The notes under the pieces: model-generated
Told to the model about the DNA's origin: nothing
The model's database searches: none
Seen by the model: only the letters and a program-made list of their open reading frames with translations
In this document: positions 1 through 21,286 of the stretch, piece by piece
Numbering within the stretch: the first letter of the stretch is position 1
How the letters are laid out: each line of letters opens with the position of its first letter
Made by a program: the position numbers and the translations under genes
From: a virus
Virus record (IMG/VR): IMGVR_UViG_3300048838_001809
Strand: one strand, 5' to 3'
Length of the DNA: 64,000 nucleotides

Positions 1-1932
1 TGCCCGCCCCAACTCACGCAAAAATGGCAGCGCGAGATCGAAGAAACTGTCCCCGGCGCTCAAGTTGTACAGCTCCGGTCGTTCCGGCAGCTCACTCGCC
101 TCGATCGTCGCTCGCGCCCGACTGGTCCTGAATACTGGATCGTCAAAGAGACGACCGCCAAAGACGGCGCGGCCTGGGAGCCGGCGTACACGATCTGGAA
201 AACCCGTAAGGGCTATTCAAAGGTTGACAAGTCGACTTGCCCGCAGTGCCCGAATTGCGGGCGGTTTATCCTCAACAAAAAGGGGTCGCCGATTCCGCCG
301 AGCGAGCTGGCCAAGCGTCGCCTCTTCTGTGTCGGCACCGAAGAAAGTCCAGGCTGTGGCTCGCCGCTGTGGACCTACAATGGCGTCACGAAGAAATGGG
401 CGCCAGCGGACTACATCAAAAAGCACCTGCGGGGATTCTTCGACTATCTGGTGGTCGACGAAATCCATGAAGAGAATTCGCCGACATCTGCCCGCGCCAA
501 CGCCATGGGCACGCTGGCCGCCGCTTGCCGCAAGGTGATCGGCCTGACTGGTACGCTCGTCGGCGGTTATGCGTGGCACCTGCGCACGCTGATCCTGCGC
601 ATCGCTCCACAATCCCTCACCGCCGAGGGTTTGCATTGGGGCAACGTGACGGACTTCAATCGCCGCTACGGCCGGATGGAAACAAAGGTCGTCACCACGA
701 GCGACGCCGCGAGCGCTGACAACAAGCGATCGAAGGGCTCGCAGCGCACGATCCAAAAGGCCATCCCTGGCATCATGCCTACGCTGTTCGGCCGCCACCT
801 GATCGACAAGTGCGTATTCCTCTCGCTGGACGAGTTGTCTGACAACTTGCCCACGTTCGAGGAAATCGTGATGCCGATCAAGATGGACCGCAAGCTCGCG
901 GAAGCCTACCAGGAAACCGAAGAGGCGTTGCGCATCGTCGTCAAGCAGATGATCGCTCGCAATGATCGTCGCCTGCTGTCCGCCATGCTTGATTGCCTGC
1001 TGACTTACCCGGACATGCCGTATGGCTGGGACGAAGTGGGCTATTGGCAAAAGGTCGAGACGCCCAAGGGTATCCAGAATCACTTCATTCCGGTGGTCCA
1101 ACCGCCGGACTTGGGTGAGTCCATCCGTGCGAAAGAGCAAGCCCTGGTCGAAACGATCCTGGCCGAGCATGGCGCCGGCCGGCAGTGCTGGGTGTACGTC
1201 ACTTGCACCAACAAGCACGATGTCGCTGGCCGCGTGGAGCGTGCCCTACGGGATGCCAAACTCAAGGCTCGCGTGCTGCGGTCATCCGTCAGCACCGATG
1301 CTCGCGAGGACTGGATTAACGAGCACGCGCCCAAGCTGGACGTGATCATTTCACATCCCCGGCTGGTCCGCACTGGGCTCGATCTGTTCGACAAGCGAGG
1401 GCGACACAACTTCCCCTCGTTGTTCTTTCACGAAACCGGCTACGACCTGTTCACGCTGCGGCAGGCCGCTCGCCGTTCATGGCGGATTGGCCAGCACCTG
1501 CCATGCAAGGTGTTCTACTCGTTCTATGCCGGCACCATGCAGGCCCGCGCGATGACGCTCATGGGACGCAAGCTCGTGGCGTCCGAAGCGATCGAGGGTA
1601 AATTTTCGTCCGAAGGGCTCGCGGCCATGTCGGGTGAAGACGACGAGTCGATGCAAATCGCTCTGGCTCGCTCGCTCGTCAACCGCATGGATGACATGGA
1701 CGCCGAGCGCGTCTGGTCGAAAGTCAGTCAGGTGCAAGGCAATGCTCACTTCAAGCCGCCGGCAGTGGCACCAGCCGCACCAGTGGCCGCATCATTGCCG
1801 CCTGCCAAGCCTGACAAAGCCGCTGGCCGTCAGCGAAAGCAGCAGCCGCAGCCGCAACCCGTCGTCGAGCAGTCCAAGCCGGCGGCACCCAAGCGGAAGA
1901 TCACGTTCCGCGAGAAGTTCTTGTTTGACTAA
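1..1932 (+). CDS. DEAD/DEAH-box (SNF2-like) DNA helicase, 5'-partial.
   Basis: Frame 1 is open from the window edge. Contains a motif II-like 'LVVDEIHE' and an SNF2 motif III-like 'GLTGT', then a helicase C-terminal region. A Cys-cluster insert (CPQCPNC...C..GC) is present, and the tail is low-complexity PAAP/PQP. Confidence 0.75.
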   Translation, partial: CPPQLTQKWQREIEETVPGAQVVQLRSFRQLTRLDRRSRPTGPEYWIVKETTAKDGAAWEPAYTIWKTRKGYSKVDKSTCPQCPNCGRFILNKKGSPIPPSELAKRRLFCVGTEESPGCGSPLWTYNGVTKKWAPADYIKKHLRGFFDYLVVDEIHEENSPTSARANAMGTLAAACRKVIGLTGTLVGGYAWHLRTLILRIAPQSLTAEGLHWGNVTDFNRRYGRMETKVVTTSDAASADNKRSKGSQRTIQKAIPGIMPTLFGRHLIDKCVFLSLDELSDNLPTFEEIVMPIKMDRKLAEAYQETEEALRIVVKQMIARNDRRLLSAMLDCLLTYPDMPYGWDEVGYWQKVETPKGIQNHFIPVVQPPDLGESIRAKEQALVETILAEHGAGRQCWVYVTCTNKHDVAGRVERALRDAKLKARVLRSSVSTDAREDWINEHAPKLDVIISHPRLVRTGLDLFDKRGRHNFPSLFFHETGYDLFTLRQAARRSWRIGQHLPCKVFYSFYAGTMQARAMTLMGRKLVASEAIEGKFSSEGLAAMSGEDDESMQIALARSLVNRMDDMDAERVWSKVSQVQGNAHFKPPAVAPAAPVAASLPPAKPDKAAGRQRKQQPQPQPVVEQSKPAAPKRKITFREKFLFD

Positions 1933-2895: not shown

Positions 2896-3297
2896 ATGAT
2901 CGAACTTTACACGTCCTGTTTTTCTCGCATCCGCACGCTGCCGCCCTCGATCGAGCCCGTATCGATTGCCCGCTGGCCAGCCCGCAACTTTCGCGGCAGA
3001 CGCATCTACACCGTCGCGCCGCCGCCGCTGGCCATGAAAGCCAAAACGCACGAGGAGTACGATGCACTTTACTTTCCGATCTTCCATTCGCTCGACCCGC
3101 ACGCATTCCTCACCGAGCTGACCGCGGGCCTGGCACCAGGATGCGAAGCGATCGCCATGCTCTGCTTCTGCGAGCCATTGGACTACTGCCATCGTCGCTA
3201 CGTCGCCGAGTGGCTGGAGCAAAACATCGACGGCTTGATCATCCCGGAGTACGGCTTCGAGCGCGAGCAATGCGAGACATTCACCGAATGGACCTAG
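2896..3297 (+). CDS. DUF488-like protein.
   Basis: About 130 aa. The C-terminal motif 'MLCFCEPLDYCHRRYVAEWL' resembles the DUF488 (YeaO-like) signature 'LLCfc...CHR..la.wL'. Confidence 0.45.
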   Translation: MIELYTSCFSRIRTLPPSIEPVSIARWPARNFRGRRIYTVAPPPLAMKAKTHEEYDALYFPIFHSLDPHAFLTELTAGLAPGCEAIAMLCFCEPLDYCHRRYVAEWLEQNIDGLIIPEYGFEREQCETFTEWT

Positions 3298-3387
3298 CGC
3301 GCACCTTGCGCAGATCGTTGACGGATTTTCAAGTCCGCATCGATAATCATCGCCGTTGAATGCAGATACCAAGCTGCGAGTCAAGCA

Positions 3388-3744
3388 ATGGCAAAGAAAC
3401 GTCGTAAGAGCGAACCGAGCGTGGCTTACAAAGCCGGCCGCGCCGTTCGCAAGGTCATTGACACTGTGAAAGGAGTCAACGTGGCGAAGAAGAAAGCGAA
3501 GCCGAAGGCCGCTCCCAAAAAGAAGCCGGCCGCACCGAAGAAGAAGGCCGCCAAGAAAAAGGCAGCCGCACCGAAGAAGGCCGCGCCGAAGAAAAAGGCC
3601 GCGCCGAAGAAAAAGTCCGGCGGCAAGAAGTCCGGCGGCAAGGGTGGCCGCATGGCCAATCTCGTCAAGCGTCACGGCAAGCGAAAGCTGTCCTCGCTGA
3701 TCAAGTCTGGCCGCATCAACGCCAAGACCGGCGCCGGGCAGTAA
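3388..3744 (+). CDS. Histone H1-like / AlgP-like Lys-Ala-Pro repeat DNA-binding protein.
   Basis: 118 aa. About 60 residues of KKAAAPKK / AAPKKK tandem repeats flanked by basic ends. The DNA shows a tandem aagaaggccgcgccgaagaaaaag repeat. Confidence 0.65.
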   Translation: MAKKRRKSEPSVAYKAGRAVRKVIDTVKGVNVAKKKAKPKAAPKKKPAAPKKKAAKKKAAAPKKAAPKKKAAPKKKSGGKKSGGKGGRMANLVKRHGKRKLSSLIKSGRINAKTGAGQ

Positions 3745-3780
3745 GCCTCTCGCGTCCGTCTCTTCAACTCGACTGTTTCG

Positions 3781-3824
3781 CCAGGATCGCATCTAACTCA
3801 TGCGATCCTGGCTGCTCTTTTTTT
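3781..3824 (+). terminator. Rho-independent terminator.
   Basis: Stems ccaggatcgcat / atgcgatcctgg (12 bp), followed by a T7 run. Confidence 0.6.
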
Positions 3825-3846: not shown

Positions 3847-4566
3847 ATGGCTGTCGTATTCGACCAGACCATTAAGCGTCTGGTCCGTCTCGCCAAAGAG
3901 CACGACTCGATCCTCGTCAGCTACTCCGGCGGCAAGGATTCGCTGTGCGTGATGGACCTGTGCTGCTCTCTCTTCGCGCGCGTTGAAGCGTTTCACATGT
4001 TTTTCGTGCCGGGCCTGGCCCACGTCGAAGAACGCCTGGAGTACGCTCGCCAGCGATGGAAAATCGACATCCGCCAGTATCCGCACTGGGGCATGCTGCA
4101 ATGCCTCAAGCACGGCACCTACCGCTTCCCGGACCCCGCGTTCGCCTCGATGCCCGACCTGAATGTCCATGACATCGAGCGGCTGGCCCTCTCTGACGCC
4201 AAATGCTCGATCGTGGCCCATGGTGGCAAGATGTCCGATTCGCTCTGGCGTCGCCGGACGATGAAAGCGCTCTCGAAGTCTCACCAGGAACGCATCTATC
4301 CGATCGAGAAATGGAACAAGTGGCACGTTCTCGCCTATTTGCAATCCAAGAAAATCCCCGTCCCATCGTCGGACGGGGCAACTTCTGGCGGTCTGGGGTT
4401 GACGGTTTCGAGCGTACTGTGGCTATATGATTCCTTCCCGGAGGATTACGAGAAAATCCGGCTTGTCTATCCATTCGTTGAAGCAATTGTTAAGCGTCGT
4501 GATTGGTATGGAATTGGAACGCATGCAGCAGCAAAAGACCGTGCCCGTCCAGTACAGGCCGATTAA
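3847..4566 (+). CDS. PAPS reductase / PP-loop ATP pyrophosphatase family protein.
   Basis: SGGKDS PP-loop motif near the N-terminus. Phage proteins of this family are typically paired with a ParB-like nuclease. Start chosen downstream of the terminator; the track ORF starts at 3823. Confidence 0.7.
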   Translation: MAVVFDQTIKRLVRLAKEHDSILVSYSGGKDSLCVMDLCCSLFARVEAFHMFFVPGLAHVEERLEYARQRWKIDIRQYPHWGMLQCLKHGTYRFPDPAFASMPDLNVHDIERLALSDAKCSIVAHGGKMSDSLWRRRTMKALSKSHQERIYPIEKWNKWHVLAYLQSKKIPVPSSDGATSGGLGLTVSSVLWLYDSFPEDYEKIRLVYPFVEAIVKRRDWYGIGTHAAAKDRARPVQAD

Positions 4567-5083
4567 GCGGTTCCCTGGCTATAGGGCAGGCGATGATGGC
4601 TCTGTTTGGAGCTGCCGGAAAGTCAGGGGCAAAAAAGGTGGTGGCTGCGAATCTTATTTAAGTGATACGTGGCATCAGCTTCGTCCAATTAAAACATCAG
4701 GCGGGTACTACCGAGTCAGCCTGTGTCGCGATGGCAAGAAAATACTTTGTTTGGTTCATCGCCTTATTCTCGAAGCATTCGTTGGTCCGTGTCCGCCGGG
4801 TCAGGAGTGTCGTCATAAGGATGGCGATAAGTCCGACAATCGGTTAAGCGAAATCAAGTGGGGCACGCCAATGGAGAATTATCGAGATCGAATCAGGCAT
4901 AACACTCAGACTCGACACAACAAGGGCGAACTAAACGGCAGCGCCATTCTGACCACAGCTAAGGCGAGTGAGATTCGCCGCAAATATGCCGTTGGCGACA
5001 TGAGTTACGCAATGCTCGGCCGTGAGTTTGGTGTCAGTGCTGCAACGATCGCCAACGTAATCAGAGGCAGAACATGGAACTAA
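4508..5083 (+). CDS. HNH homing endonuclease.
   Basis: Motif 'HKDGDKSDNRLSEIKWGTPMEN' (HNH_3). The N-terminus 'FPGYRAGDDGSVWS' is NUMOD4-like. There is a C-terminal HTH-like tail. Local GC drops sharply over 4560-4960. Overlaps the 3' end of the upstream gene. Confidence 0.7.
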   Translation: MELERMQQQKTVPVQYRPIKRFPGYRAGDDGSVWSCRKVRGKKGGGCESYLSDTWHQLRPIKTSGGYYRVSLCRDGKKILCLVHRLILEAFVGPCPPGQECRHKDGDKSDNRLSEIKWGTPMENYRDRIRHNTQTRHNKGELNGSAILTTAKASEIRRKYAVGDMSYAMLGREFGVSAATIANVIRGRTWN

Positions 5084-6216
5084 CTGACGAGACGAAGGCC
5101 AGGAAGCCCCGCAAGGCGAAGCAGCAGCCGCCTCAGCCGCCCAGTGAGGCCGGAGAGCCAGTCGTTGGCACCGGGGAGCCCGCAGAAGCCCCACAGCCAT
5201 CACACGACGATCACACAGGCAGCCCACAGGCCGAGCCCGCAGAAGCCGCCGGCGACCCCTCTCCCTCTGAAACACCCTCTCCAGCCGCCGCGAAGTCCTC
5301 GCGCGCTAAAGACACTGCGCCCGCCGCGCTGACCGAGCTGGAGAAATTCACGTTCGAGGTCAAGCACCGGCGCGATCTCAAGCCGCACCCGAAAAACCCG
5401 AAAACCATCACGTCCAAGGCCCGCAAGAAGCTCCAATCGACGATCAAGCGCGTCGGCCTGATCGAGCCGATCGTCTGGAACAAACGCAACGGCTATCTCG
5501 TCGGCGGCCACCAGCGTCTCTCGATCATGGATTCGCACCACAAGGGGACCAACTACCGGCTGCACGTCGCCGTGGTCGACATGGACGAAAAAACTCACCT
5601 GGAAACCATGACCGCACTTTCCAACGCGCTCATGCAAGGCGAGTACGATCAAGACAAACTGAAATCTCTCTTCGCCGATGACAAGATCGGCATCGAGGAA
5701 GCGGGCTTTGACCTGGGCGAATACTACCGCCTCTTTGGCGACGAAGGATTCGAGGATCGCGCGCCTGACTTAGAGGACTTGGCCGAGAGAATCCGCGAGG
5801 CGACCGACCGCACCCAGAAGCAAGTCTCTTCCACCGGGGACCGCGACGATCCAGGCTTCTATGCCGTGCTCGTTTTCAAAGATCGCATTCAACGCGATGC
5901 CTTTGCCTGCGCGCTGGACCAAGGGACCGAGCAGGACCGCACGATCATCGACGGCCGCGGCGTGTTCGATTCGCTCTGCGCCATGCGCGTCATCCAGGCC
6001 GACCCGAAAAAGGCCGAAGAGCAACCCTATTCATCGATCCCTTGCTGCGATCGCTGCGGCGGCGCCCATGGTTACATTCCGATTCGCGAAATGACCGTGC
6101 CGACCGACACGCACAATTTCTGGGCTCTCTGCCCGGAAACGGGCGACCCGGTGTTCCTGTACTTTGACCCCGACGAAACAGAAGACGAAAACGATGGCGA
6201 AGACGAAGAAGAATAA
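5074..6216 (+). CDS. ParB-like nuclease-domain protein.
   Basis: 'HPKNPKTI...GLIEPIVWNKRNGYLVGGHQRL' matches the ParB N-domain. The N-terminal 100 aa are a low-complexity Pro/Glu/Ala linker. The C-terminus has a Cys cluster and an acidic tail. Confidence 0.6.
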   Translation: MELTDETKARKPRKAKQQPPQPPSEAGEPVVGTGEPAEAPQPSHDDHTGSPQAEPAEAAGDPSPSETPSPAAAKSSRAKDTAPAALTELEKFTFEVKHRRDLKPHPKNPKTITSKARKKLQSTIKRVGLIEPIVWNKRNGYLVGGHQRLSIMDSHHKGTNYRLHVAVVDMDEKTHLETMTALSNALMQGEYDQDKLKSLFADDKIGIEEAGFDLGEYYRLFGDEGFEDRAPDLEDLAERIREATDRTQKQVSSTGDRDDPGFYAVLVFKDRIQRDAFACALDQGTEQDRTIIDGRGVFDSLCAMRVIQADPKKAEEQPYSSIPCCDRCGGAHGYIPIREMTVPTDTHNFWALCPETGDPVFLYFDPDETEDENDGEDEEE

Positions 6217-6718
6217 CCCCCGCGCGCGCTTCACCGACCCCGATGGCCGCGGCACGGACGACTATCTCTACTCGAATTTTGAAATCATCACCACGCCCAA
6301 CGCTGGCCGTTCTGTGATCGCCCTGCGCGATTTTCTCCCGGACGAGCTGGTCATGCGAATCTACGGCCGGCTGATTCCAGACACCAAGCGATCGCCCTAT
6401 GGCTCGCATTACTGCATGGAACTGGACGATCATCGCATGATCCTGGAGCCCTACATGCCGGGGGGCCTGGTCAACCACTCCTGCTCGCCGAACTGCATCC
6501 AGAACACCAATCCCAACATCCCACACTGTTGGGAGTTGCGCGCTCTGTGCTTCATCGCTACCGGGCAGGAATTGTGCTACGACTACGGCTGGCCGTTTCA
6601 AGGGGAGTTCCCGAAATGTCACTGTGGCTCGTATAACTGCCGGGGCTACATTGTGTCCGAAGAGGACTTGCCGAAGTTGCTGGCCGCCAAGCGAAGGAAA
6701 AAGGCGAAGCGAAGATGA
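6194..6718 (+). CDS. SET-domain protein-lysine methyltransferase.
   Basis: SET signatures 'NHSCSPNC' and 'ELCYDYG', plus a post-SET 'CHCGSYNCRG'. A basic KKNNPR N-terminus and KRRKKAKRR C-terminus. An alternative start exists at 6164. Confidence 0.75.
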   Translation: MAKTKKNNPRARFTDPDGRGTDDYLYSNFEIITTPNAGRSVIALRDFLPDELVMRIYGRLIPDTKRSPYGSHYCMELDDHRMILEPYMPGGLVNHSCSPNCIQNTNPNIPHCWELRALCFIATGQELCYDYGWPFQGEFPKCHCGSYNCRGYIVSEEDLPKLLAAKRRKKAKRR

Positions 6719-6891
6719 TCGACTTGCTTTTGCGGATCAACACAAGACTCGGTGTGTTTGATCTGAATTCCGATCGTGGTCGCTGTGGTTTTTTCTACGC
6801 ACTAGGAATTGCAGTCGGTATCGCGGTTGGCACGTTCATCGTGTCGCCGTTTTTGATCTGCATGTTTATTTTGCAATCGAGGTCGCCGTGA
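6715..6891 (+). CDS. Small membrane protein, 58 aa. Below the ORF-track cutoff.
   Basis: ATGA overlap with the SET gene stop, and its stop overlaps the next GTG start. One TM helix (FYALGIAVGIAVGTFIVSPFLICMFIL). Confidence 0.3.
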   Translation: MIDLLLRINTRLGVFDLNSDRGRCGFFYALGIAVGIAVGTFIVSPFLICMFILQSRSP

Positions 6892-7103
6892 AAAACTGGT
6901 GCGATCAATGTCGGAGCAGCGGCACCATGCCGGACCCATCGGCCCGCTGGTGGCAGTTCTGGCGTCGCGTGCCATGCAAGGTATGTGGTGGTGATGGAAT
7001 CTCCAAGCCGCCTGGGTGGCCTGATCGCGAGGCAATGAAGTCACTCCGGCCGACTCCTTCGCCGCCGCCGCCGCCGATCAAGGTTTACCAGGGCAATGCG
7101 TGA
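6888..7103 (+). CDS. Small zinc-ribbon protein.
   Basis: GTG start. Two CxxC pairs (CDQC...CKVCGG) and a PPPPP tail. Confidence 0.4.
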   Translation: MKNWCDQCRSSGTMPDPSARWWQFWRRVPCKVCGGDGISKPPGWPDREAMKSLRPTPSPPPPPIKVYQGNA

Positions 7104-7633
7104 TGACCGAGCCGATCACCGACCCCCAGACTGGTCACAAGTATGTCACCACGAAGGACGGGAAGGTACGCACCCCCAAGTCCACGGCGAAGGATGTCAA
7201 CGAGCGGGTGGCTGCTTGCGCGGACATGCTGGCGAGGCACTTTCATAAGCATCAGATCAAGGCGATGCTGAAGCAGAAATACGGCGTGGGTGGTCGTCAG
7301 GCCGAAACGTACATTTCTCGCGCGAGAGATTATTTGCTATCCCTCGCCGACGAAGGCCCGCGTGAGCTTGTCGCCAACGTGCTCGCCTCGCTGCGAACCG
7401 TGATCCGGCAATCCGACTCTGGTATGGAAGTGATTGCCGCCAACGCCGAGATTTGCAAGCTGTTCGGGCTCTACAAGCCAGTCAAGATCGCCCCGACCAC
7501 GCCCGATGGAAGTCAACCGTACGCCCTCGCGGAGCGGGTGGCGCAATCACTCACAGATGAACAACTCCAATCGCTGTTCCTGTTGAAGCAACAGATCGAC
7601 AAGGCGCAGCAGATTGAACACAAGCCGGAATGA
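7100..7633 (+). CDS. Hypothetical protein.
   Basis: ATGA overlap with the upstream gene. Good GC3 bias. Confidence 0.5.
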   Translation: MMTEPITDPQTGHKYVTTKDGKVRTPKSTAKDVNERVAACADMLARHFHKHQIKAMLKQKYGVGGRQAETYISRARDYLLSLADEGPRELVANVLASLRTVIRQSDSGMEVIAANAEICKLFGLYKPVKIAPTTPDGSQPYALAERVAQSLTDEQLQSLFLLKQQIDKAQQIEHKPE

Positions 7634-7830
7634 CTATGCGTTGTGCCAACTGCGGCGCCAGGTGCAGCCGCGACGAACTAAAGCAGTGCGATGATTGCCT
7701 CGAATTCATCTGCGAGGCATGCTGCGCGGAGTTTCCGCATCACGATCCGCCGCACAATCGCTGCGGGGATTGCTACGAGCGGCTGGGGCCAAGGGAGTTA
7801 AGCAAGCGCAAGCACAAGCAATGCCGCTAA
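7630..7830 (+). CDS. Small Cys-rich zinc-binding protein.
   Basis: Multiple CxxC motifs (CANCGARC, CDDC, CEAC, CGDC). ATGA overlap. Confidence 0.4.
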   Translation: MTMRCANCGARCSRDELKQCDDCLEFICEACCAEFPHHDPPHNRCGDCYERLGPRELSKRKHKQCR

Positions 7831-8171
7831 CGAGTCGCCTGCTCCGTGGAGTCGCTGACACCAGGCTTGAGCGATTTTCTCACGGACCTACCGATTGCCC
7901 TGGCCCACGGCGAATCAATCCGTTCGCCGGCAATTTGCCCGCACACCGAGCAGCGATAGGGCATCGTTGAATAGGCATTCAGCGCTGCGTGCAAAATCCA
8001 GAACGGCAGCCACAGTCCGCACATCAAGAGCGCCAGCCCTAGGTGTAGTACGTGCGGAACTTCGTAGGTGTCGCGGGTGTGCAGCGACACCTGTTGACAC
8101 CGATAGCAATAACTCTGCTTCTGTTGGTGTGCCATTTCGTTCCCCTCCATTAAGTGCCGGAGCCACTGCAT
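7827..8171 (-). CDS. Zinc-ribbon membrane protein. It is the only minus-strand gene in the left 60 kb.
   Basis: CYRC...central TM helix...CSVCG. Both overlapping +strand ORFs are Arg/Ala-rich artefacts. Upstream is an AT-rich divergent intergenic region. Confidence 0.5.
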   Translation of the reverse strand: MQWLRHLMEGNEMAHQQKQSYCYRCQQVSLHTRDTYEVPHVLHLGLALLMCGLWLPFWILHAALNAYSTMPYRCSVCGQIAGERIDSPWARAIGRSVRKSLKPGVSDSTEQATR

Positions 8172-8342
8172 CGATTATACCTAACCCCGTTATCAGCAAC
8201 GATTAAAAAATCTTGTTGACAGTTTTGATAACAGTCGGCCATATTCTGCCCTCGCGACGGCGGCGACCAGCCGCGTTCGGGCGATCAAGGACAAAGCTTC
8301 CCGCCGCCGTCGCTTTCCTCCGCGTCCTAGGGGGCCAGTAAT
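8172..8342. promoter_or_regulatory. Divergent regulatory region with a sigma70-like promoter candidate and a 12-bp inverted repeat.
   Basis: TTGACA at about 8215, then 17 nt, then a catatt-like -10. Perfect inverted repeat gcgacggcggcg (8263-8274) / cgccgccgtcgc (8305-8316). AT-rich relative to its surroundings. Confidence 0.35.
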
Positions 8343-8759
8343 ATGGTCGATCTTCTCCTTGCTATCCGCCGCTACACGGCCTGGACCAACTCACCGAAGT
8401 ACACTCGGCATGCCGCGATTTCCGGTAAATTCCGACAGGCCATTGGCGTTGAAATCGCCAAGCTCCAGAATCAGCCGTCGCTCTCAAAAGACCTGGCCGC
8501 CAAGCTCGCCGCGCTCCGCGAGCTGCTGCACGAATCGCTGACCGATGAGCCGGCGGCCGTCAAGCAGATCGCCGCGATCGCCGAGCAGTTCGTGCTCCAG
8601 TTGCCCGAATCGCTCCAGCGCAGGCTGGCCGAGCCGGAGCCGGAGCAATCCAATCTGCCCGCCGAGACTGGCGATTTCATTCCGACCGAGTTCAGCTCGC
8701 CGCCGGAAGCACGCAATCCCTATCCAGGGTCGCTGCCGCGCAGGAATCACGATGGCTGA
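8343..8759 (+). CDS. Hypothetical protein.
   Basis: ORF with GC3 bias. First + gene after the divergent region. Confidence 0.55.
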   Translation: MVDLLLAIRRYTAWTNSPKYTRHAAISGKFRQAIGVEIAKLQNQPSLSKDLAAKLAALRELLHESLTDEPAAVKQIAAIAEQFVLQLPESLQRRLAEPEPEQSNLPAETGDFIPTEFSSPPEARNPYPGSLPRRNHDG

Positions 8760-9198
8760 CAGCAACATTCGCACGTTCATGGCCATTCCTGTTCGCGGGC
8801 CGTGCGGCGGCATCTATCACGGAGGGTTCGAGGAAATCATGGACGACCAAGCCGTCACGAAGTTCGACACCGGAGCCGTTCGCGGCAGCAGCCCCAAGGC
8901 TCGCCTCGATCTGATCAGCCCTGTCGGCCTGCGTCGCGTCGGCAATGCCTGTGCGGAAGGGGCCGTGAAGTACCCGCCGCACAACTGGAAAAAGGGCATG
9001 CCCGCCAGCGTGTTGATCAACCACGCGCTGGAGCATATCGCCAGCTATCTGGAAGGGAAGACGGAAGAGGACGATCTGGGTCATGCGATTTGGAACCTGA
9101 TGACGCTGTGCCACTTCGAGGAAAAAATGCCGCACCTGATCGACATCCCGGAGCGGCCGGAGTACGAGCACTACCTGAAAGCACAGTCGACTCAATGA
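8752..9198 (+). CDS. dATP/dGTP pyrophosphohydrolase-like (DUF5664-type) phage protein.
   Basis: 'KARLDLISPVGLRRVGNACAEGAVKYPPHNWKKG' resembles the conserved 'KPRYDLIPPEAL...GA.KYGD.NWEKG' N-terminal domain. ATGgcTGA overlap with the upstream gene. Confidence 0.45.
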   Translation: MADSNIRTFMAIPVRGPCGGIYHGGFEEIMDDQAVTKFDTGAVRGSSPKARLDLISPVGLRRVGNACAEGAVKYPPHNWKKGMPASVLINHALEHIASYLEGKTEEDDLGHAIWNLMTLCHFEEKMPHLIDIPERPEYEHYLKAQSTQ

Positions 9199-9494
9199 AC
9201 ATCCTCATCGCCCTCATCGCCGTCGTCATCGGAATCCAGATCGGCCTGGCCATTCAGCGAACAGGCTTCGCGCTGTTCTGCTCGCGCTGGTGGGTTTGCT
9301 TCGACGGCCGGAGCAAAGAAGTCTGGATCGATCGCACGAACTGGGCCTTGCCGCCGCTGGCGATCGTGCTCGACAAGTCGATGAAAGTCGGTGTCATCGG
9401 GCCATACGGCTCGGCCGACAAGGCGAACGAGCAGTGTGATCGCATCTATCGCAACCAAGTGAAGTTCGCCCGGCGGAAACAGGCGGCGGCCTGA
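9195..9494 (+). CDS. Small membrane protein.
   Basis: ATGA overlap. N-terminal TM helix (ILIALIAVVIGIQIGLAI). Confidence 0.45.
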   Translation: MNILIALIAVVIGIQIGLAIQRTGFALFCSRWWVCFDGRSKEVWIDRTNWALPPLAIVLDKSMKVGVIGPYGSADKANEQCDRIYRNQVKFARRKQAAA

Positions 9495-9538
9495 CCCTTA
9501 ACCCCTTTCCTCTTTCCTGAAACTCTAGGAGCACCCTC

Positions 9539-10945
9539 ATGTCCAACGATCTACTGAAAGCCCGCCTTGTTTGGGACGGCGGCGACGAAGTGCGAATTCC
9601 GCCAGAGATGGGCGTGCCGCGCAGCGATCAAATGCAGGGGACGGCGGCTGAGCGGCTGAGCGAGTTGGCAGGGCGAGTATGTTACGACTCTCTGGGCAAG
9701 GGCAGGCCGAGCTTTAGCCGATCAGGAGAGTTCAATAGCGCGGAGATCGCATCGAAACTAGACGTGATTGCCGAGTATCGGGAGCTGGGGGTGCAGTTTG
9801 TTGGCGTCGAGCACAATGGCTGCATGACGTGCCATGCGTTCGGTCGAGCAGATTCCAATCCATCGGCATTTGTGAACATAAAGGATGGCCGCTATCACGA
9901 CGCAGCAAACGGCGACAATCTGTCGCTGATCGAGTTCGCAATGAAGGCAGGCAAGTTCAGGAAATGGAGCGATGTCGCCGCCCATTTCGCACAAAAAGCC
10001 GGCGTGTCATGCAGCAGAGTTGAGGGCTACCACGACCACATCCTCGCCGTTGGCCACGGCAGCGTGTTGGAGCATTTCAATTTCACGATCGGCGTTCAGG
10101 GCTTCGATGCCGATTACGCTGCCTATCTGCTGATTAATCGTCCCGGCATTATCTTCCACAGCCACTGGCACAATGCCGATTTCAGAATAACCGTCAATCT
10201 TCGCGCGATACTCGAATGGCAATCCTTCGCCGACGAGTTCGGTAACCTTGACGACGAGTATCGAATTGATGCTCACAATGATCTTGGTCGTCTTCTCGCT
10301 GAGCTTGGCCATCAAGTTGCGCCACACATCATTAAGCGACCGGAGCAATCGTCGTCGACTTCGGCGATGATCATGCCGCCTGAAACTGACCACGAAAAGT
10401 GGATCTCCCTCTACCTCTCCGGCAGCCGCGGCTTCTCACACGAGCAAGTCCGACATGGCGACTTCACCGCGATCAGCCAGCGGAGTACGCGGTATGTGGA
10501 TGAAGATGGTTCGCCGTGGGTCGAGCATCCACTGATCACGGCATACATCAACGATGTGCATGCCGAAGACACAGCTATCCCGAGCTGTGCGGATGAAACG
10601 ATGAAGTCGGCACAGAACACTTACCGTCTGACCGTTCACGAGCTTGAGGCGTATCTGATCGACCGCAAGGTCGACAAGACTTCCGCCCGCAAGCAAGCCC
10701 GCGGCGCGGCACGCGGCTATCTCGGCAACGCACTGCAAACCGAAATGATCTTCTCCGCGTCCGTCAGTCAGTGGCGCAGGATGGTTCAACAGCGATGCTC
10801 CCGGCACGCCGATGCAGAGATACGGGAAGTCTATGTCCAGGTGGTTCGTGAGTTGCAAAAAAGCAGGTATGCAGACTCATTTCAGGACATCCGGTTAATC
10901 GACTCACCGGACGGCATCGGACAAGTGGCAGAGTTCGTGAAATGA
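9539..10945 (+). CDS. ThyX-like protein (FAD-dependent thymidylate synthase fold) with a non-canonical signature and an inserted CHC2-like zinc-finger segment.
   Basis: N-terminal 'AGRVCYDS' and 'SRGFSHEQVRHGDFTAISQRSTRYV' parallel the ThyX 'aRvCy.S' and 'RHR(X7)S...RY' motifs, but the third Arg is Gly and there is a one-residue insertion. Residues about 90-150 ('C..CHAFGRADSNPSAFVNIKDGRYHDAANGDNLSLIEF') resemble a primase-type zinc-binding element. Confidence 0.5.
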   Translation: MSNDLLKARLVWDGGDEVRIPPEMGVPRSDQMQGTAAERLSELAGRVCYDSLGKGRPSFSRSGEFNSAEIASKLDVIAEYRELGVQFVGVEHNGCMTCHAFGRADSNPSAFVNIKDGRYHDAANGDNLSLIEFAMKAGKFRKWSDVAAHFAQKAGVSCSRVEGYHDHILAVGHGSVLEHFNFTIGVQGFDADYAAYLLINRPGIIFHSHWHNADFRITVNLRAILEWQSFADEFGNLDDEYRIDAHNDLGRLLAELGHQVAPHIIKRPEQSSSTSAMIMPPETDHEKWISLYLSGSRGFSHEQVRHGDFTAISQRSTRYVDEDGSPWVEHPLITAYINDVHAEDTAIPSCADETMKSAQNTYRLTVHELEAYLIDRKVDKTSARKQARGAARGYLGNALQTEMIFSASVSQWRRMVQQRCSRHADAEIREVYVQVVRELQKSRYADSFQDIRLIDSPDGIGQVAEFVK

Positions 10946-11481
10946 AAATCATACGCTTGCCATCTGGCCATGAAGTGCTTGTTGATGATGCTGATTACGA
11001 TTGGCTTGCCAGCCTTCCCTGGCGACTTGCGGTTCGCAACAAGACATCCTACGCCCAAATGCAAGTCGGACGAAAAGGCCGCAGGGTTTACATGCACCGC
11101 ATGATCATGGGTGAGCCAGACTGCCTCGTGGATCATCGCAACCGCAATGGACTTGATAATCAGCGCCACAATCTTCGATTAGCTACACAGCCACAAAATC
11201 AGCACAATCGCGGGCCGGTTCTTGGAACGAGTTCGCGATTCAAGGGAGTGCGAAGACATTCGCAAAATAACTGCTGGGTGTCACATATCACGTTCAATAA
11301 AGTTCGCAAGCACCTAGGGACATTCGTAAGCGAAGAGGTTGCGGCACTGGCCTACGACCAAGCAGCCAGAGAGTTGGCTGGAGAATTTGCGAAACTAAAC
11401 TTTCCAGACGTAATTGACTATTCAATCGTCGCAGTGTCACGAGGAAAGATAGGGCGGCGACCAAAAGCATCAACCATTTAG
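10942..11481 (+). CDS. HNH-AP2 homing endonuclease.
   Basis: 'VDHRNRNGLDNQRHNLRLATQPQNQHN' (HNH) followed by 'SSRFKGVRRHSQNNCWVSHITFNKVRKHLGTFVSEEVAALAYDQAA' (AP2). AT-rich island. ATGA overlap with the ThyX-like gene. Confidence 0.75.
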   Translation: MKIIRLPSGHEVLVDDADYDWLASLPWRLAVRNKTSYAQMQVGRKGRRVYMHRMIMGEPDCLVDHRNRNGLDNQRHNLRLATQPQNQHNRGPVLGTSSRFKGVRRHSQNNCWVSHITFNKVRKHLGTFVSEEVAALAYDQAARELAGEFAKLNFPDVIDYSIVAVSRGKIGRRPKASTI

Positions 11482-11565
11482 CTCCGTTTCCCCTCTCCGT
11501 CCGCAGCTCGTTTCTCGTTGCCACCGCGATTCGAGCTGCGGCGGGTGGGGTAGAGAGAGTGACGA

Positions 11566-11617
11566 AGGATCGTGACGAGCTGCGGGAGCGAATCAAGCAA
11601 CTGGAATCCACCTTGAA
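11566..11617 (+). repeat. Direct repeat copy 1. It duplicates the 3' end of the gene ending at 12187.
   Basis: cgtgacgagctgcgggagcgaatcaagcaac is nearly identical to 12097-12150. It would encode ...DRDELRERIKQLE, like the C-terminus ...ERDELRDALRERIKQ of the downstream gene. Confidence 0.5.
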
Positions 11618-11797
11618 GACATGACCGTATCTCGCACCGCCTCTGGCCAGGGGGATGGGACTTTCGGGTATAGCTCGAAAGTAGCGACGGATTGATCGAC
11701 TTGGCCAACGACCAAACGCGAGTCGGAAAAACTGCTGACGAGTAGTCGCGTGACAGCTCGGAGAGACGGGCATATTTATTCCGCCAGGAGATAGCCA

Positions 11798-12187
11798 GTG
11801 GATTACGACATCGAACGAGCGAAGCAAGAGCAGGCCGAGATCCGCAAGGCGTTCCGGGAGATATTCCCGCTTGCTGCCGAGAGTGATCTGCCGTGGGCAG
11901 CCTCGCACATCAAGAACTTCCTGCGGGACCGCATCAAGCGCGAAGTTCAAGAGGGCGTGTTTCATTTTCAATCTGCCATTGTTCGCGTGCTTTGCGAAAT
12001 CTCGCCACCGAAAACGCACGTCGTCGACATGGCCCGGATCGTCGTCGAGGCAGCTAGAGATGGTCGACGTTTTCAAGAGCAACTAGAGAGCGTCAAAAAA
12101 GAACGTGACGAGCTGCGTGACGCGCTGCGGGAGCGAATCAAACAACCCGAAAAGATTATTGAGGAAATCAAGAAAGACAAGCAATGA
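11798..12187 (+). CDS. Hypothetical protein.
   Basis: GTG start with AGGAGA RBS 6 nt upstream. C-terminal coiled-coil. Confidence 0.5.
   Translation: MDYDIERAKQEQAEIRKAFREIFPLAAESDLPWAASHIKNFLRDRIKREVQEGVFHFQSAIVRVLCEISPPKTHVVDMARIVVEAARDGRRFQEQLESVKKERDELRDALRERIKQPEKIIEEIKKDKQ
12097..12150 (+). repeat. Direct repeat copy 2, inside the 3' end of CDS 11798-12187.
   Basis: See copy 1. Confidence 0.5.
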
Positions 12188-12612
12188 AAAACTATATCGA
12201 GCAGGCACTGACCACCGAGGCCCCTATCACGCCGGAGCTAGCCAATCGCCTTATTACCGATGCTCGCGCCGTACATGCGATCTTTGGACTCGCGACTGAA
12301 ATCGGCGAACTGACCGACTCGTTCAAGCGCACGATCTTTTATGGCAAGCATGCCGACCGCACGAACATCGCCGAAGAGATTGGCGATGCGTTCTGGTATC
12401 TGGCCATCCTCTGCGATCACGTCGGCGTGAGCTTCGAGCAGTGCATGGTGGCCAACATCAACAAGCTCCGCGCTCGTTATCCGAATAAGTTCACAGAGCA
12501 CGATGCAGTGAATCGCGACCTGGGGAATGAGCGGGCGGTACTGGAGCGGCATGTGCCTGACGATTTGCAAGCAACGGAACCGCGAGCGAGTTCCGTTGCG
12601 AACGGACGCTAA
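12184..12612 (+). CDS. MazG-like nucleotide pyrophosphohydrolase.
   Basis: 'EEIGDAFWYLAIL' and '...NINKLRARYPNKF' match the all-alpha NTP-PPase (MazG) signatures. ATGA overlap. Confidence 0.7.
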   Translation: MKNYIEQALTTEAPITPELANRLITDARAVHAIFGLATEIGELTDSFKRTIFYGKHADRTNIAEEIGDAFWYLAILCDHVGVSFEQCMVANINKLRARYPNKFTEHDAVNRDLGNERAVLERHVPDDLQATEPRASSVANGR

Positions 12613-12626: not shown

Positions 12627-13523
12627 ATGAAGTCCACCGAGGCCATCAACGCATTTCGCTATGCCCTCTCCGGCAATCGCGATCAGTTAATCAGCGCAAT
12701 TCGCTGCTTGGAAGCCAGCGAGCGCGCCGCACGCCGCCACTCGCTGGCCGATCGGATTCGCAAACTGCTGGAGCAGCACGCCGGCCCCACCAGCAGCCTG
12801 GTTGCCCTGCCGAACTGCTCCGATGGAGTCTGTGCCATCAATCCCACGCGCACGCTTGGCACACTGCTGCTGCCCGATGATGTGCGGCAGTCGCTGGAAT
12901 TGCTCAAGCGCGAGCACGATCGCCGCGAAGTGCTCCTGGCCAATAATCTTCGCCCGCGAACCAAACTGCTGTTCCATGGTCCGCCGGGCAACGGCAAGAC
13001 CGCCGCGGCCGAAGCACTGGCCAGCTTGCTTGGCGTGCCGCTGCTCTACGCCGAGCACAGCCAGATTGCCGATAGCCACTTCGGCACGTCGGCCAAGAAT
13101 CTCGTGAAGGTGTTCAGCGACGCCGCACGCCAACCATGCGTGCTGTTCATCGACGAAATCGACGCCCTGGCCGAGTCGCGGGCCGCTGGCACCAGTGGGG
13201 CCGACAAAGAGGCTAATCGCATGGTAACGCAGCTATTGATGTCGCTCGACGCGATGCCGCCGACATGCACGTTCATCGCGGCGACCAATCGCCTTGATTG
13301 CCTCGATCCAGCGCTGTTTCGCCGCTTCGACACCAAATTGGAATTCCCGCCGCCGAGCGATAGGCAAGTCGCGATCTTCATCGACACGCTATGCAGGCGG
13401 CACCCGATACTCCGCGGCAGCTTGTCGGCACTTCGCTTTGACGAAAGCACGCCACGCCCAAGCTTCGCAGAAATCGAAACGATCCTACAGAACAAGGCCA
13501 GGGAGCTAATTGCCGCGGCATGA
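12627..13523 (+). CDS. AAA+ family ATPase.
   Basis: Walker A 'GPPGNGKT', Walker B 'VLFIDEIDAL', sensor-1 'ATNR', Arg finger 'LDPALFRRFD'. Confidence 0.75.
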   Translation: MKSTEAINAFRYALSGNRDQLISAIRCLEASERAARRHSLADRIRKLLEQHAGPTSSLVALPNCSDGVCAINPTRTLGTLLLPDDVRQSLELLKREHDRREVLLANNLRPRTKLLFHGPPGNGKTAAAEALASLLGVPLLYAEHSQIADSHFGTSAKNLVKVFSDAARQPCVLFIDEIDALAESRAAGTSGADKEANRMVTQLLMSLDAMPPTCTFIAATNRLDCLDPALFRRFDTKLEFPPPSDRQVAIFIDTLCRRHPILRGSLSALRFDESTPRPSFAEIETILQNKARELIAAA

Positions 13524-13783
13524 CCACTGAACTAATTAGTATGGTTCGCGCTCGTTTGATCGCCACTGCCGTCAAGGAGCTGGAGCGCGACGGCCCGAAG
13601 ATCATTCACTGCTTCCGCAAGCAGCACTGCCTATCGCTGGCCGACCTGGAGAAGCTAACCGGCATTAACCGGCCGAATCTCTCCGCGATGGAGAATGGCA
13701 AACGCAAGGTGACATTTGCTACGCTGGCCAAGCTAGCCGAAGTGGACAAGAGGCTGTCGAGGAAACGGAGCAAGTGCGAATGA
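13520..13783 (+). CDS. XRE-family HTH transcriptional regulator.
   Basis: 'LSLADLEKLTGINRPNLSAMENGKRKVTFATLAKLAEV' is a Cro/C1-type HTH. ATGA overlap with the AAA gene. Confidence 0.65.
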   Translation: MTTELISMVRARLIATAVKELERDGPKIIHCFRKQHCLSLADLEKLTGINRPNLSAMENGKRKVTFATLAKLAEVDKRLSRKRSKCE

Positions 13784-14340
13784 ACAGAAGCGTGGACGAG
13801 ATCGTCAGGCAGGCTGCCGAGCGCATCAGCGAATTGCGAGGCTACCTGCCCAGCGGCGGCGAGTGGATGGTGCAAAGCCTGCTTGGTTTTCGCGGCGAGC
13901 CGAGGGTGCATGCCGTGCCGGATGTTGAGTCGGTCATCCGCGAGGCGATTGCGGAAGCGATCAATGAAATGCAGGCGAAGTTGCTGGCGGCCGAGCAAGA
14001 GCGAGACGAATGGAGGCATCGCGCTGTTGGCGAAACATGCCGAGTAATGAGCGACCCCGATTGCCGTTGCTCACTGTGCATCCGCGACCACGAAATCCAG
14101 CAACTACGGAATTTGTGCGGCTACGTAGAGCTTTATCTGGCCCATTACGACGATTGCGTCATCAAACGAGGAAAGCCGCAAGAGTGCAGTTGCGGCATGT
14201 GGGCCTTGCATCGCCGCCTTAATGACGCCGCCGCCAAAAATTCCCTTGACGGATTTGAAGCACCGGCGCCATCATGCGACGCCGATGCACTATCAACAGT
14301 GATCACTACGATCGATGTTGCGCGGGAGGGTGCCGGCTGA
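13774..14340 (+). CDS. Hypothetical Cys-rich protein.
   Basis: CxxC clusters (CRCSLCIRDHE, CSCGMW). Overlaps the HTH gene stop. Confidence 0.5.
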   Translation: MRMNRSVDEIVRQAAERISELRGYLPSGGEWMVQSLLGFRGEPRVHAVPDVESVIREAIAEAINEMQAKLLAAEQERDEWRHRAVGETCRVMSDPDCRCSLCIRDHEIQQLRNLCGYVELYLAHYDDCVIKRGKPQECSCGMWALHRRLNDAAAKNSLDGFEAPAPSCDADALSTVITTIDVAREGAG

Positions 14341-14481
14341 CTCCGGCCAATAGCGGCCCGATGGATCGAGGCAAGCTGGTTGCGTTGCGTACCTGCCTTG
14401 TAAGCAAAGCAAAGTCCAGCCGCAGGAGTAGCCCAGAGCCCGCTGTGGCGTTGTAACGCGGGCCTGCTTGTCCTTTCGAGG

Positions 14482-14526
14482 CCGTTGCGGTCGGTTCGCC
14501 TGAGTCGGCCGCAACGGTGTTTTTAA
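14482..14526 (+). terminator. Rho-independent terminator.
   Basis: ccgttgcgg...ccgcaacgg stem, followed by tgttttt. Confidence 0.55.
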
Positions 14527-14536
14527 CGGGTGACGC

Positions 14537-15703: not shown

Positions 15704-15704
15704 C

Positions 15705-21073: not shown

Positions 21074-21286
21074 TGTCCATCGGCAAGCCAATCGCTTGGA
21101 CCTGGACCAGGGACGGCCAATACCGCCCTTGCGTGTGGGAGTTAAGTCGCGCCGACCGAATTGCGATTGGGCTCGAATCCCCTCGCAATGTCGGCGGGCG
21201 GTTGCAGCGAAAAAGCCGACTACGAAAGAAGCGAACTAAGTGGCTCGATAGCTGAGATCGCCACAGCGGAGAATGGAAGCTCGCCG

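Follow-up and report, generated by a model that had tools for sequence, protein, structure and literature searches.

The viral DNA treated here is the IMG/VR record IMGVR_UViG_3300048838_001809, a stretch of 64,000 nucleotides referred to as a whole as the window. Between positions 3847 and 12612, it carries five genes of nucleotide and DNA-modification type: a 3′-phosphoadenosine-5′-phosphosulfate (PAPS)-reductase-like gene, a ParB-like gene, a stand-alone DUF5664 gene, an enlarged ThyX variant, and a MazG-type gene. Taken together, these genes are probably best explained as a mosaic of two parts—a PAPS/ParB module and an independent module that acts on the deoxynucleoside triphosphate (dNTP) pool—with interspersed homing endonucleases. 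The initial annotation had joined all five in a single hypermodification pathway, a proposal that is not supported, as the two halves do not co-occur across 84 related loci. The clustering itself is real but is expected from the modular layout of a phage early region; the virus is a large tailed phage or prophage, and the stretch lies in its early region. Each part adds a new member to a known family; unique to the window are a primase-type domain inserted into ThyX and the splitting of the PAPS/ParB pair by an HNH gene.

The window is phage-like, and its + strand holds nearly all genes. It derives from the JGI metagenome contig Ga0498930_0000262 (JGI 3300061720; 174,324 bp), of which approximately 80 kb were viewed, including the flanks. 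All five genes exist as initially annotated, lie on the + strand, and match their families; position 3847 belongs to the start codon of the PAPS-like gene and position 12612 to the stop codon of the MazG gene, both in agreement with the JGI gene calls. DNA relatives of the region were detected neither by megablast against 50,697 phage records nor by an exact 50-mer search of IMG/VR, and a tRNA scan of the window found none.

The separation into two modules is based on the gene content of related loci. One sample comprises 43 IMG/VR loci anchored on the PAPS-like gene—37 after redundancy removal, the set used for the terL, ASCH, and DUF488 counts—and the other comprises 41 loci anchored on the ThyX-like gene, with 32 nonredundant long-ThyX loci serving for neighbor clustering. 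The neighboring open reading frames (ORFs) were searched with iterated profiles built from the window proteins. A ParB-like gene occurs in 40 of the 43 PAPS loci versus one of the 41 ThyX loci (Fisher p = 3e-19), which confirms the PAPS/ParB pairing as the recurrent phage module that it had been taken for. A PAPS-like gene is present in none of the ThyX loci. The PAPS loci contain no ThyX-like gene, no DUF5664 gene, two MazG genes of the window type, and one SET ORF. Because PAPS/ParB and ThyX/DUF5664 do not co-occur in the loci of relatives, the five genes are regarded as two independent modules. In the window itself, an opposite-strand gene for a small LITAF-like zinc-ribbon protein (7827–8171, − strand; Pfam zf-LITAF-like, E = 1.8e-4) splits the two groups into separate co-directional blocks, and a promoter-like site at 8216–8245 precedes the second + strand block. 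Promoter-like sites are, here and below, consensus matches and as such weak evidence.

The first gene of the PAPS/ParB module (3847–4566, + strand) encodes a PAPS-reductase-like PP-loop ATP pyrophosphatase of 239 amino acids. Its SGGKDS PP-loop is legible, and the assignment to Pfam PAPS_reduct (E = 8e-8; 32.9 bits at a cut-off of 22.5) bears out the family initially named; a second Pfam domain was not found. The protein has 103 homologues of approximately 220 amino acids each. An alignment of 26 members shows invariance at the S-GK-D positions of the PP-loop and at G126, D131, P152, and D200. No cysteine is invariant or nearly so among these 26 members, and the C-terminal tail of the window protein has none; since no cysteine is conserved, CysH-type, DndC-type, TtuA-type, and other Fe–S or persulfide chemistry is excluded. 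The NCBIfam models for CysD and CysH-type proteins score far under their cut-offs. PADLOC matches to BrxP and QueC are marginal and cover the PP-loop only (QueC, E = 0.004), and a PDB search with the PAPS profile yields a marginal 43-residue match to Cap9 in addition to CysD and TtuA matches that are again confined to the PP-loop. No PADLOC model of the Dnd or Ssp systems is matched; the neighbors of the gene are HNH, ParB, and SET genes. As judged from the sequences, the chemistry of the pair is not a sulfur reaction of the Dnd or CysH type.

The second gene (5074–6216, + strand) encodes a ParB/Srx-type protein of 380 amino acids, which matches PHROG 9353 (E = 1e-35) and the ParB-like PHROG 620 (E = 4e-21). 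Neither a Pfam family at E ≤ 0.01, including ParB_N (PF02195), nor an NCBIfam model for IbrA/IbrB or ParB, nor a PDB entry in a sequence search was matched. The ParB domain resembles the N-terminal domain of DNA methyltransferases (PHROG 498, E = 1e-20; PADLOC MTase_II, E = 6e-14). It features the two nucleotide-binding motifs of the ParB fold, Box I as N108-P109-K110 and Box II as G145-H146-Q147-R148. Of 29 PAPS-linked ParB-like proteins, at least 27 keep the NP(R/K) and GGHQR boxes, and at least 28 share R99, N108-P109, G145-H146-Q147-R148, D153, Y161, N184, and G189. The window protein deviates from its relatives at three near-invariant positions (R110K, E175H, and N183S). The ParB domain is preceded by a low-complexity extension of approximately 85 residues rich in Pro, Ala, and Glu and followed by a C-terminal tail with a CxxC motif. 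Features of canonical partition systems are missing: no helix–turn–helix (HTH) or C-terminal dimerization domain is recognized by Pfam, and no ParA-like protein is found among the called genes of the locus.

The architecture of the pair is nearly invariant. In 40 of the 43 PAPS loci, the ParB-like ORF abuts or overlaps the 3′ end of the PAPS-like gene on the same strand. The window keeps the order PAPS to ParB with a free-standing HNH endonuclease gene in between (4508–5083, + strand; Pfam HNH_3, E = 1.7e-10; PHROG 59, E = 1.5e-39), and because the genes mostly abut in the 40 other loci, this HNH gene is a secondary insertion. terL lies within 5 kb of the pair in 20 of the 37 nonredundant loci, in 19 of them downstream on the same strand. 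ASCH (PUA-like) proteins are encoded near the pair in 12 of the 37 and a DUF488 protein within 5 kb in five; no other recurrent partner was found among these loci. A DUF488-like ORF is also present in the window, 550 bp upstream of the pair (2896–3297, + strand; 133 amino acids; PHROG 2450, E = 5e-16; Pfam DUF488-N3a, E = 8.5e-6, with 26.5 bits slightly under the cut-off of 27), and its product is possibly an occasional accessory of the PAPS/ParB module. The pair also occurs in isolated phages. Riemerella phage RAP44, whose pair is gp33/gp32, has the order NinG, small ORF, PAPS-like, ParB-like, terS, terL, and portal, and Lactobacillus reuteri phage LR1 the order PAPS-like, small ORF, a “nuclease” gene taken as ParB-like, terS, terL, and portal. 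These genomes measure 43 to 49 kb, and the approximately 10 kb displayed around the pair contain no ThyX, MazG, or DUF5664. The operon is widespread in viral metagenome contigs and at the same time experimentally accessible in cultivable temperate phages.

The initial annotation called the function of the pair unassigned, in agreement with the literature searched, which offered annotations and analogies and in which a functional study of the pair was not found. Three published lines make a DNA-directed role the one judged most likely. Phage ParB homologues are required for adjacent thymine dioxygenases (5mYOX) to act on double-stranded DNA, and the 5mYOX/ParB modules co-occur with terminase genes (PMC13229309). 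In phages, fusions of ParB domains to DNA methyltransferases are frequent (bioRxiv 10.1101/2025.10.10.680097). Finally, ParB-superfamily proteins partner the PP-loop enzyme DndC and the enzyme DpdA in bacterial DNA modification. By these analogies, the pair may modify DNA, an assignment that is tentative and held at somewhat under an even chance. The module (3847–6216) would then work as follows. The ParB-like protein would act as a DNA-engaging, nucleoside triphosphate (NTP)-binding partner that targets or activates the PP-loop enzyme; the latter would use ATP to adenylate a substrate; and both would act on phage DNA late in infection, shortly before packaging. A more specific picture extends to both modules. 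The pair would be a chemically new two-component system of post-replicative DNA modification, in which the ParB-fold protein loads on or opens phage DNA and switches on a cysteine-free PP-loop enzyme; just before packaging, this enzyme would adenylate a base carbonyl or a group of the backbone so as to allow substitution without a sulfur relay; the enlarged ThyX, in addition, would be a replisome-tethered enzyme with altered cofactor use or product. As one joint proposal, this picture is doubtful. The pair nevertheless poses a sharply defined problem, with its nearly invariant architecture, its usual position beside packaging genes, and the 2026 precedent of ParB-type activators.

The central gene of the dNTP-pool module (9539–10945, + strand) encodes an enlarged ThyX variant of 468 amino acids, which matches Pfam Thy1 (PF02511) with E = 3.5e-27 and 95.9 bits at a cut-off of 24.8. 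It belongs to a family of more than 1000 homologues, which, among those listed, mostly measure 350 to 420 amino acids versus approximately 210 to 250 for canonical ThyX. An AlphaFold2 model of the window protein (predicted local distance difference test score, pLDDT, of 84) retrieves as top PDB folds Mycobacterium tuberculosis (Mtb) ThyX, 2af6 and 3gwc (E = 2e-12), and also Corynebacterium glutamicum ThyX. For a residue table, 70 family members were aligned with Mtb ThyX, nine short phage relatives, and nine chromosomal ThyX proteins; the roles of the Mtb residues were taken from PMC6514825. All 70 family members keep the Mtb residues R87, H91, E92, R95, H96, S105, R107, R172, R199, and S71; H69 is retained in 68, and Y108 is Tyr or Phe. 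Every tabulated residue for deoxyuridine monophosphate (dUMP) binding or catalysis is present in the window protein.

The family departs from canonical ThyX at the cofactor. Instead of the signature RHR-(X)7-8-S, the window protein features R305-H306-G307 followed by S316. The equivalent of R97 is Gly in 55, Lys in 11, and Arg in four of the 70 proteins (G307 in the window), and that of R190 is Ala in 51, Ser in eight, Glu in five, and Gly in three (S410 in the window), with Arg absent from the common states. R97 and R190, both ligands of the phosphates of flavin adenine dinucleotide (FAD), are thus lost together in the family; both are present in all nine chromosomal proteins. In addition, a family-wide insertion of approximately 100 residues, in which R201, P202, and R222 are invariant, separates the first core strand from the SR..HE..RH segment. 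The ThyX that the initial annotation described as atypical departs from canonical ThyX in the RHG motif and the two lost FAD-phosphate ligands and retains every dUMP-binding residue. The simplest reading of these residues is that the enlarged ThyX would be a functional enzyme that methylates dUMP and binds the ADP moiety of FAD in another way, and not one with a new substrate; because the dUMP site is intact, the expected product is ordinary deoxythymidine monophosphate (dTMP). Short phage ThyX proteins with SQRSTRY and an intact RHR grade into the long form, and the chromosomal ThyX of Fervidibacter and Armatimonadota likewise combine the SQRSTRY motif with an intact RHR. Phages commonly encode other enlarged ThyX proteins as well, with 300 to 370 amino acids.

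The window protein carries a further insertion of 106 residues (residues 57–162; 9707–10024, + strand), located at a loop that is variable in the family; it is missing in 12 of 13 aligned members, with P0010 bearing a shorter insert. When searched alone against 1.8 billion representative proteins, the insert gave 442 significant matches, the best with E = 1.3e-19 and approximately 50% identity. Almost all of these lie at residues ~10–120 of proteins that mostly measure 600 to 1000 amino acids, and six of the ten top matches contain D5_N, DUF5906, Pox_D5, or AAA_25 (DnaB/RepA-like) domains, while four have no Pfam match. The best Pfam match of the insert itself is Zn_ribbon_DnaG, sub-threshold at E = 0.028. 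The insert resembles the CHC2 zinc finger of primases, although here, as in the primase-helicases, most of the zinc ligands have degenerated. As indicated by these matches, the insert is a homologue of the CHC2-zinc-finger-like domain at the N terminus of D5-type and DnaB-type primase-helicases, and it may tether ThyX to the replisome or to DNA, which is a reasonable guess. An intein remnant was considered for the insert and rejected, as it lacks the splice-junction residues of the true inteins of relatives.

The closest ThyX sequences, with 52% and 48% identity, stem from metagenome-assembled genomes (MAGs) of Pirellulales (Planctomycetota). Long ThyX proteins are further found in Phycisphaerae, Pseudobdellovibrionaceae, and Eisenbacteria and a shorter relative in a Myxococcota MAG. 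The long form sits in phage or prophage replication regions with varying neighbors—DNA methyltransferases, helicases, nucleases, and integrases—and was found in no isolated phage of the collection examined. Inteins interrupt the ThyX of relatives at four conserved motifs (CYD, GH|S, SRGF|SHE, and SY|SQRSTRY), a mode of insertion that is typical of an important enzyme of nucleotide metabolism. The interrupted ThyX genes are those of the related loci L015, L018, L020, L044, L095, L100, and L110, and several of them carry inserts of the size of homing endonucleases. One related viral contig (L004) encodes, 2.5 kb downstream of its long ThyX, a highly divergent second ThyX-like paralogue of 364 amino acids (13660–14754), which has no Pfam match and no RH..SQRSTRY and was found by iterated profile search (E = 8e-62). 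The enlarged ThyX clade, with more than 1000 mostly uncultured members, amounts to a natural experiment in flavin binding, and ThyX is an antibacterial target.

Upstream of ThyX, a stand-alone DUF5664 protein is encoded (dGTP_diPhyd_N, PF18909; 8752–9198, + strand; E = 6e-17; 61.9 bits at a cut-off of 27). Its homologues measure 114 to 124 amino acids, with DUF5664 as the only Pfam domain, and since they are shorter, the true start may be at 8839. Pfam names the domain after the N terminus of a longer dATP/dGTP diphosphohydrolase. The stand-alone DUF5664 of Arthrobacter phage Wayne hydrolyzes dATP > dUTP > dGTP to deoxynucleoside monophosphates (dNMPs), and phages with canonical genomes encode DUF5664-like proteins as well (PMC12884076). 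The model of the window protein is poor (pLDDT of 62), and a PDB fold search gave no significant match, S-2L MazZ at E = 1.7 being discounted as evidence; a PDB sequence search yielded chance-level matches only, and no NCBIfam model for DUF5664 was matched. By analogy with the Wayne enzyme, the window DUF5664 is a probable dNTP pyrophosphohydrolase.

The last gene of the module (12184–12612, + strand) encodes a MazG-type all-α NTP pyrophosphohydrolase of 142 amino acids (Pfam MazG, PF03819, E = 1.4e-7, 32.1 bits at a cut-off of 22; PHROG 229, E = 6e-40). The acidic metal-binding motifs E-x2-E (EIGE) and E-E-x-G-D (EEIGD) are legible in the sequence, and a PDB sequence search retrieves weak matches to MazG and DCTPP1. 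None of the PDB sequence matches obtained for the proteins of the two modules bears on a substrate. A MazG-like gene, the sole neighbor to recur, lies near long ThyX in nine of 31 loci versus one of 36 PAPS loci (p = 0.004), in eight of the nine cases within 1.3 kb and on the same strand. No partner of long ThyX was found in more than seven of the 32 nonredundant loci when antisense shadow ORFs of the high-GC ThyX gene were discounted.

Together, the three proteins of this module (8752–12612) would condition the dNTP pool. DUF5664 and MazG are expected to hydrolyze dNTPs to dNMP and pyrophosphate, with dUTP and some purine dNTPs as the probable substrates; they would thereby yield dUMP and keep unwanted dNTPs out of DNA. 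The enlarged ThyX would methylate dUMP to dTMP with methylenetetrahydrofolate and reduced flavin. Remodeling of the dNTP pool had initially been offered as the alternative for all five genes; it fits ThyX, DUF5664, and MazG and does not extend to the independent PAPS/ParB module. The phage DNA most likely contains ordinary thymine.

Several points weigh against this overall explanation. Co-occurrence was measured within ±8 to 10 kb of the anchors and mostly on metagenomic fragments, so that linkage elsewhere is possible, and the absences of modification enzymes reported below cover approximately 80 kb of the 174-kb contig. The ThyX protein reaches 67.9 bits with the NCBIfam thyX equivalog (TIGR02170), under the cut-off of 87.9, and aligns at profile positions 67–202 only. 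The loss of FAD ligands together with the extra domain of approximately 100 residues leaves room for a changed cofactor or product. On the side of the PAPS/ParB pair, mutation of NTP-binding residues of ParB had no effect in the ParB-dependent dioxygenases (PMC13229309), and IbrA/IbrB of Escherichia coli are described as activators of prophage gene expression and not as DNA modifiers (named in PMC4490671).

The last point leads to the alternative that survives best: the PAPS/ParB pair might regulate late or prophage gene expression, as described for IbrA/IbrB, or aid packaging with the ParB-like protein binding or nicking DNA near the packaging site, in either case without modifying DNA. In its favor, the pair immediately precedes terS and terL in isolated phages and is near terL in 20 of 37 loci, and ParB/Srx proteins can, according to the literature, be nickases or NTP-gated DNA clamps. 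On the other hand, a PP-loop enzyme that looks catalytic and is strictly conserved speaks for chemistry over mere DNA binding, and in the window, the pair is not beside packaging genes but approximately 10 kb upstream of a virion-gene block, in which a 621-amino-acid ORF starts at 16262. The association with ASCH and DUF488 proteins points to nucleic-acid or nucleotide chemistry as well; ASCH is a reader of modified bases. A purely regulatory or packaging role is rather unlikely.

A second alternative concerns ThyX and is independent of PAPS/ParB. The enlarged enzyme would make a noncanonical pyrimidine nucleotide—for instance, 5-hydroxymethyl-dUMP, if water is captured by the exocyclic methylene intermediate—or methylate dCMP or UMP, while the MazG-type and DUF5664 proteins exclude the canonical dNTP. 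5-Hydroxymethyl-dUMP has been trapped from ThyX reactions. The family-wide loss of R97 and R190, the conserved extra domain with its three invariant residues, the score under the equivalog cut-off, the recurrent adjacency of MazG-like genes in nine of 31 loci, and the restriction of the long form to sources other than the isolated phages of the collection are all compatible with such a change. The residues that contact dUMP and shield C5 and N5 are, however, all conserved, and the lost residues bind FAD phosphates and not the substrate (PMC6514825). Short relatives and chromosomal ThyX proteins with SQRSTRY grade into the long form, and enlargement to 300 to 370 amino acids is common among phage ThyX. 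A supply line from dUTP via dUMP to dTMP would account equally well for a MazG beside a thymidylate synthase. A new product of the enlarged ThyX is therefore improbable.

Still less probable is the single pathway of base replacement or hypermodification, in which the pyrophosphatases clear a canonical dNTP and the ThyX-like enzyme supplies a modified dNMP for further elaboration on DNA by PAPS/ParB. Its appeal lies in the spacing of five genes within 9 kb on one strand, in the departure of ThyX from the RHR motif, in ParB partners being established for post-replicative thymine modification, and in the glycosyltransferases, methyltransferases, and PfkB kinase at 47 to 58 kb of the same phage; pairs of a dNTPase and a thymidylate synthase-like enzyme are, moreover, the logic of the T4 and SPO1 modification pathways. 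Against it stand the separation of the PAPS/ParB and ThyX halves in the 84 related loci, the opposite-strand gene between them in the window, and the isolated phages of 43 to 49 kb, in which the pair lies beside packaging genes with none of the other three genes in the region displayed. The intact dUMP site of ThyX does not suit a modified product either. Known hypermodification enzymes were sought by Pfam and PHROG scans and in the precomputed Pfam assignments of called genes in the fetched contig parts. In the visible 80 kb, these revealed no TET/JBP dioxygenase, ThyA-type hydroxymethylase, 5-hydroxymethyluracil (hmU) kinase, or aGPT-Pplase, no tRNA-guanine transglycosylase (TGT)/DpdA or Que genes, and no phage DNA polymerase. 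Neighboring positions in a phage early region say little about a shared pathway, and it was the comparative context that split the two modules.

The sugar-related genes invoked for the single pathway form a late cluster after the tail genes (47068–58140). It comprises a fusion of a GT9 heptosyltransferase with an FkbM methyltransferase (47068–49161), a PfkB-type kinase (49944–50984), two class I methyltransferases (53937–55202 and 56726–57295), a GT4 glycosyltransferase (55199–56206), and a phosphoribosyltransferase-like gene (57292–58140). A role as DNA glycosylation machinery was considered and is probably not given, since both the GT9/FkbM/PfkB make-up and the place behind the tail genes suggest chemistry on glycans or heptose; the cluster may serve the modification of virion or host-surface glycans (heptose). 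An HNH gene (56199–56774) lies between the GT4 gene and the second methyltransferase ORF, which matches only the C-terminal half of its profiles and hence may be a split gene.

Two further alternatives are highly improbable. DUF5664 might signal a 2-aminoadenine (Z) genome, as in PurZ0 phages, where it removes dATP; DUF5664 indeed prefers dATP and occurs in Z-genome phages, but it is likewise found in canonical-genome phages (PMC12884076), and PurZ/PurA-like, DatZ, DUF550, DmtZ, and DpoZ proteins were not found in the visible 80 kb, leaving DUF5664 as the only such component. Equally improbable is an auxiliary metabolic gene for assimilatory sulfate reduction of the host (CysH)—a reading common in virome papers and suggested by the Pfam and PHROG names and the PHROG category “auxiliary metabolic gene”—because the catalytic C-terminal cysteine of CysH (ECGLH-type) is missing along with any conserved cysteine, the CysD and CysH-type scores are far under the NCBIfam cut-offs, and sulfate assimilation offers no role for the obligatory ParB partner.

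Beyond the two modules, the same stretch and its surroundings hold several genes that the initial annotation had not mentioned: two HNH endonucleases, a SET protein, a histone-H1-like ORF, and an IetA-like ATPase. The second HNH gene encodes a homing-type HNH-AP2 endonuclease directly 3′ of ThyX (10942–11481, + strand; PHROG 99, E = 2.8e-36), with Pfam AP2 and HNH_3 scores slightly under the cut-offs. In total, at least five free-standing HNH genes are found in approximately 72 kb: those at 4508–5083, 10942–11481, and 56199–56774 and two in the upstream flank (L048, 1–277 and 6554–7291). The SET-domain gene (6194–6718, + strand; Pfam SET, E = 3.5e-11) overlaps with its start the 3′ end of the ParB gene. 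The motifs NHSCSPN, ELCYDYG, and CHCGSYNCRG are legible, the last one representing the post-SET cysteine motif (CxCx4C), and no NCBIfam SET model was matched. A small Lys/Ala/Pro-rich histone-H1-like protein is encoded 2.4 kb upstream of the SET gene (3388–3744, + strand; no Pfam match), so that a nucleoid-protein-like substrate and a lysine methyltransferase occur in one phage. This recalls the chlamydial SET enzyme, which methylates Hc1 and Hc2. With a promoter-like site at 3318–3347 and a strong terminator with a 13-bp stem at 3780–3812, the H1-like ORF appears to be its own transcription unit.

Directly after MazG follows an IetA-like AAA+ ATPase (12627–13523, + strand), which matches PADLOC IetA over its full length (E = 6e-60) and NCBIfam IteA under the cut-off (E = 1e-39). 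No IetS-like protease was seen beside it; the next ORFs are an HTH gene of the Cro/C1 type (13520–13783) and one without a Pfam match. The ATPase could serve as a decoy, in anti-defense, or in superinfection exclusion. The segment at 15275–16265, which separates the early genes from the structural module, holds an ORF that weakly matches the C-terminal domain of the RNA polymerase α subunit and then an SPFH/Band-7 membrane protein. The structural block contains the portal gene (21161–22852), and a prohead protease, a major capsid protein, and a tape-measure protein are encoded in the window as well.

At its 5′ end, the window begins inside a helicase gene. The upstream flank (L048, 5080–9579) together with window positions 451–1932 encodes a DUF6094 protein, an HNH protein, and a 747-amino-acid SNF2/ResIII-type helicase, and an ankyrin-repeat protein lies farther upstream. 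Toward the 3′ end, a tyrosine integrase is located at 62043–62873 (− strand). Past the integrase and beyond the end of the window (L113, 1–10000), a GerE regulator, a large serine recombinase, a reverse transcriptase (RVT_1), a second ParB_N protein, and a PD-(D/E)XK nuclease are found; either the element continues there or it abuts another mobile element.

Among known systems, IbrA/IbrB of E. coli ECOR-9, to our knowledge the only named relatives of the PAPS/ParB pair, share with the window the combination of a PAPS-reductase-family gene with a ParB/Srx-family gene on prophages or mobile islands; YbdN/YbdM are the corresponding pair of strain K-12. IbrA and YbdN are longer and carry a C-terminal DUF3440, whereas the window protein is a minimal PP-loop domain of 239 amino acids, and the window pair is split by an HNH gene. 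[quoted passage not shown] The window differs from them by the lack of DndA, DndD, DndE, and TGT and by the absence of the DndC cysteines and Fe–S cluster ligands. In the 5mYOX systems, the gene of a phage ParB homologue neighbors that of an enzyme, as in the window (PMC13229309); the partner there is an Fe(II)/2-oxoglutarate dioxygenase and here a PP-loop ATPase, and 5mYOX was not found in the window.

For the dNTP-pool module, the closest counterparts are Mtb ThyX (Rv2754c) and Thermotoga maritima ThyX (TM0449), with which the window protein shares the fold, the tabulated substrate and catalytic residues, and the targeting by inteins and homing endonucleases. It differs by RHG in place of RHR, the loss of the R190 equivalent, the family insertion of approximately 100 residues, and the extra primase-type domain of 106 residues. 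The DUF5664 protein of phage Wayne and the MazZ/DUF550 enzymes (PMC12884076) correspond to the window in that a stand-alone DUF5664 of approximately 120 to 150 amino acids stands among phage nucleotide genes; unlike in Z-genome phages, the window DUF5664 has no PurZ context. The arrangement as a whole can also be compared with T4. There, gp56 (dCTPase/dUTPase) feeds dNMP to the C5-modifying enzyme gp42, and a dUTPase and a thymidylate synthase act likewise in other phages. The T4 enzyme gp42 is a ThyA-type hydroxymethylase acting on dCMP, whereas the enzyme of the window is a ThyX with an intact dUMP site.

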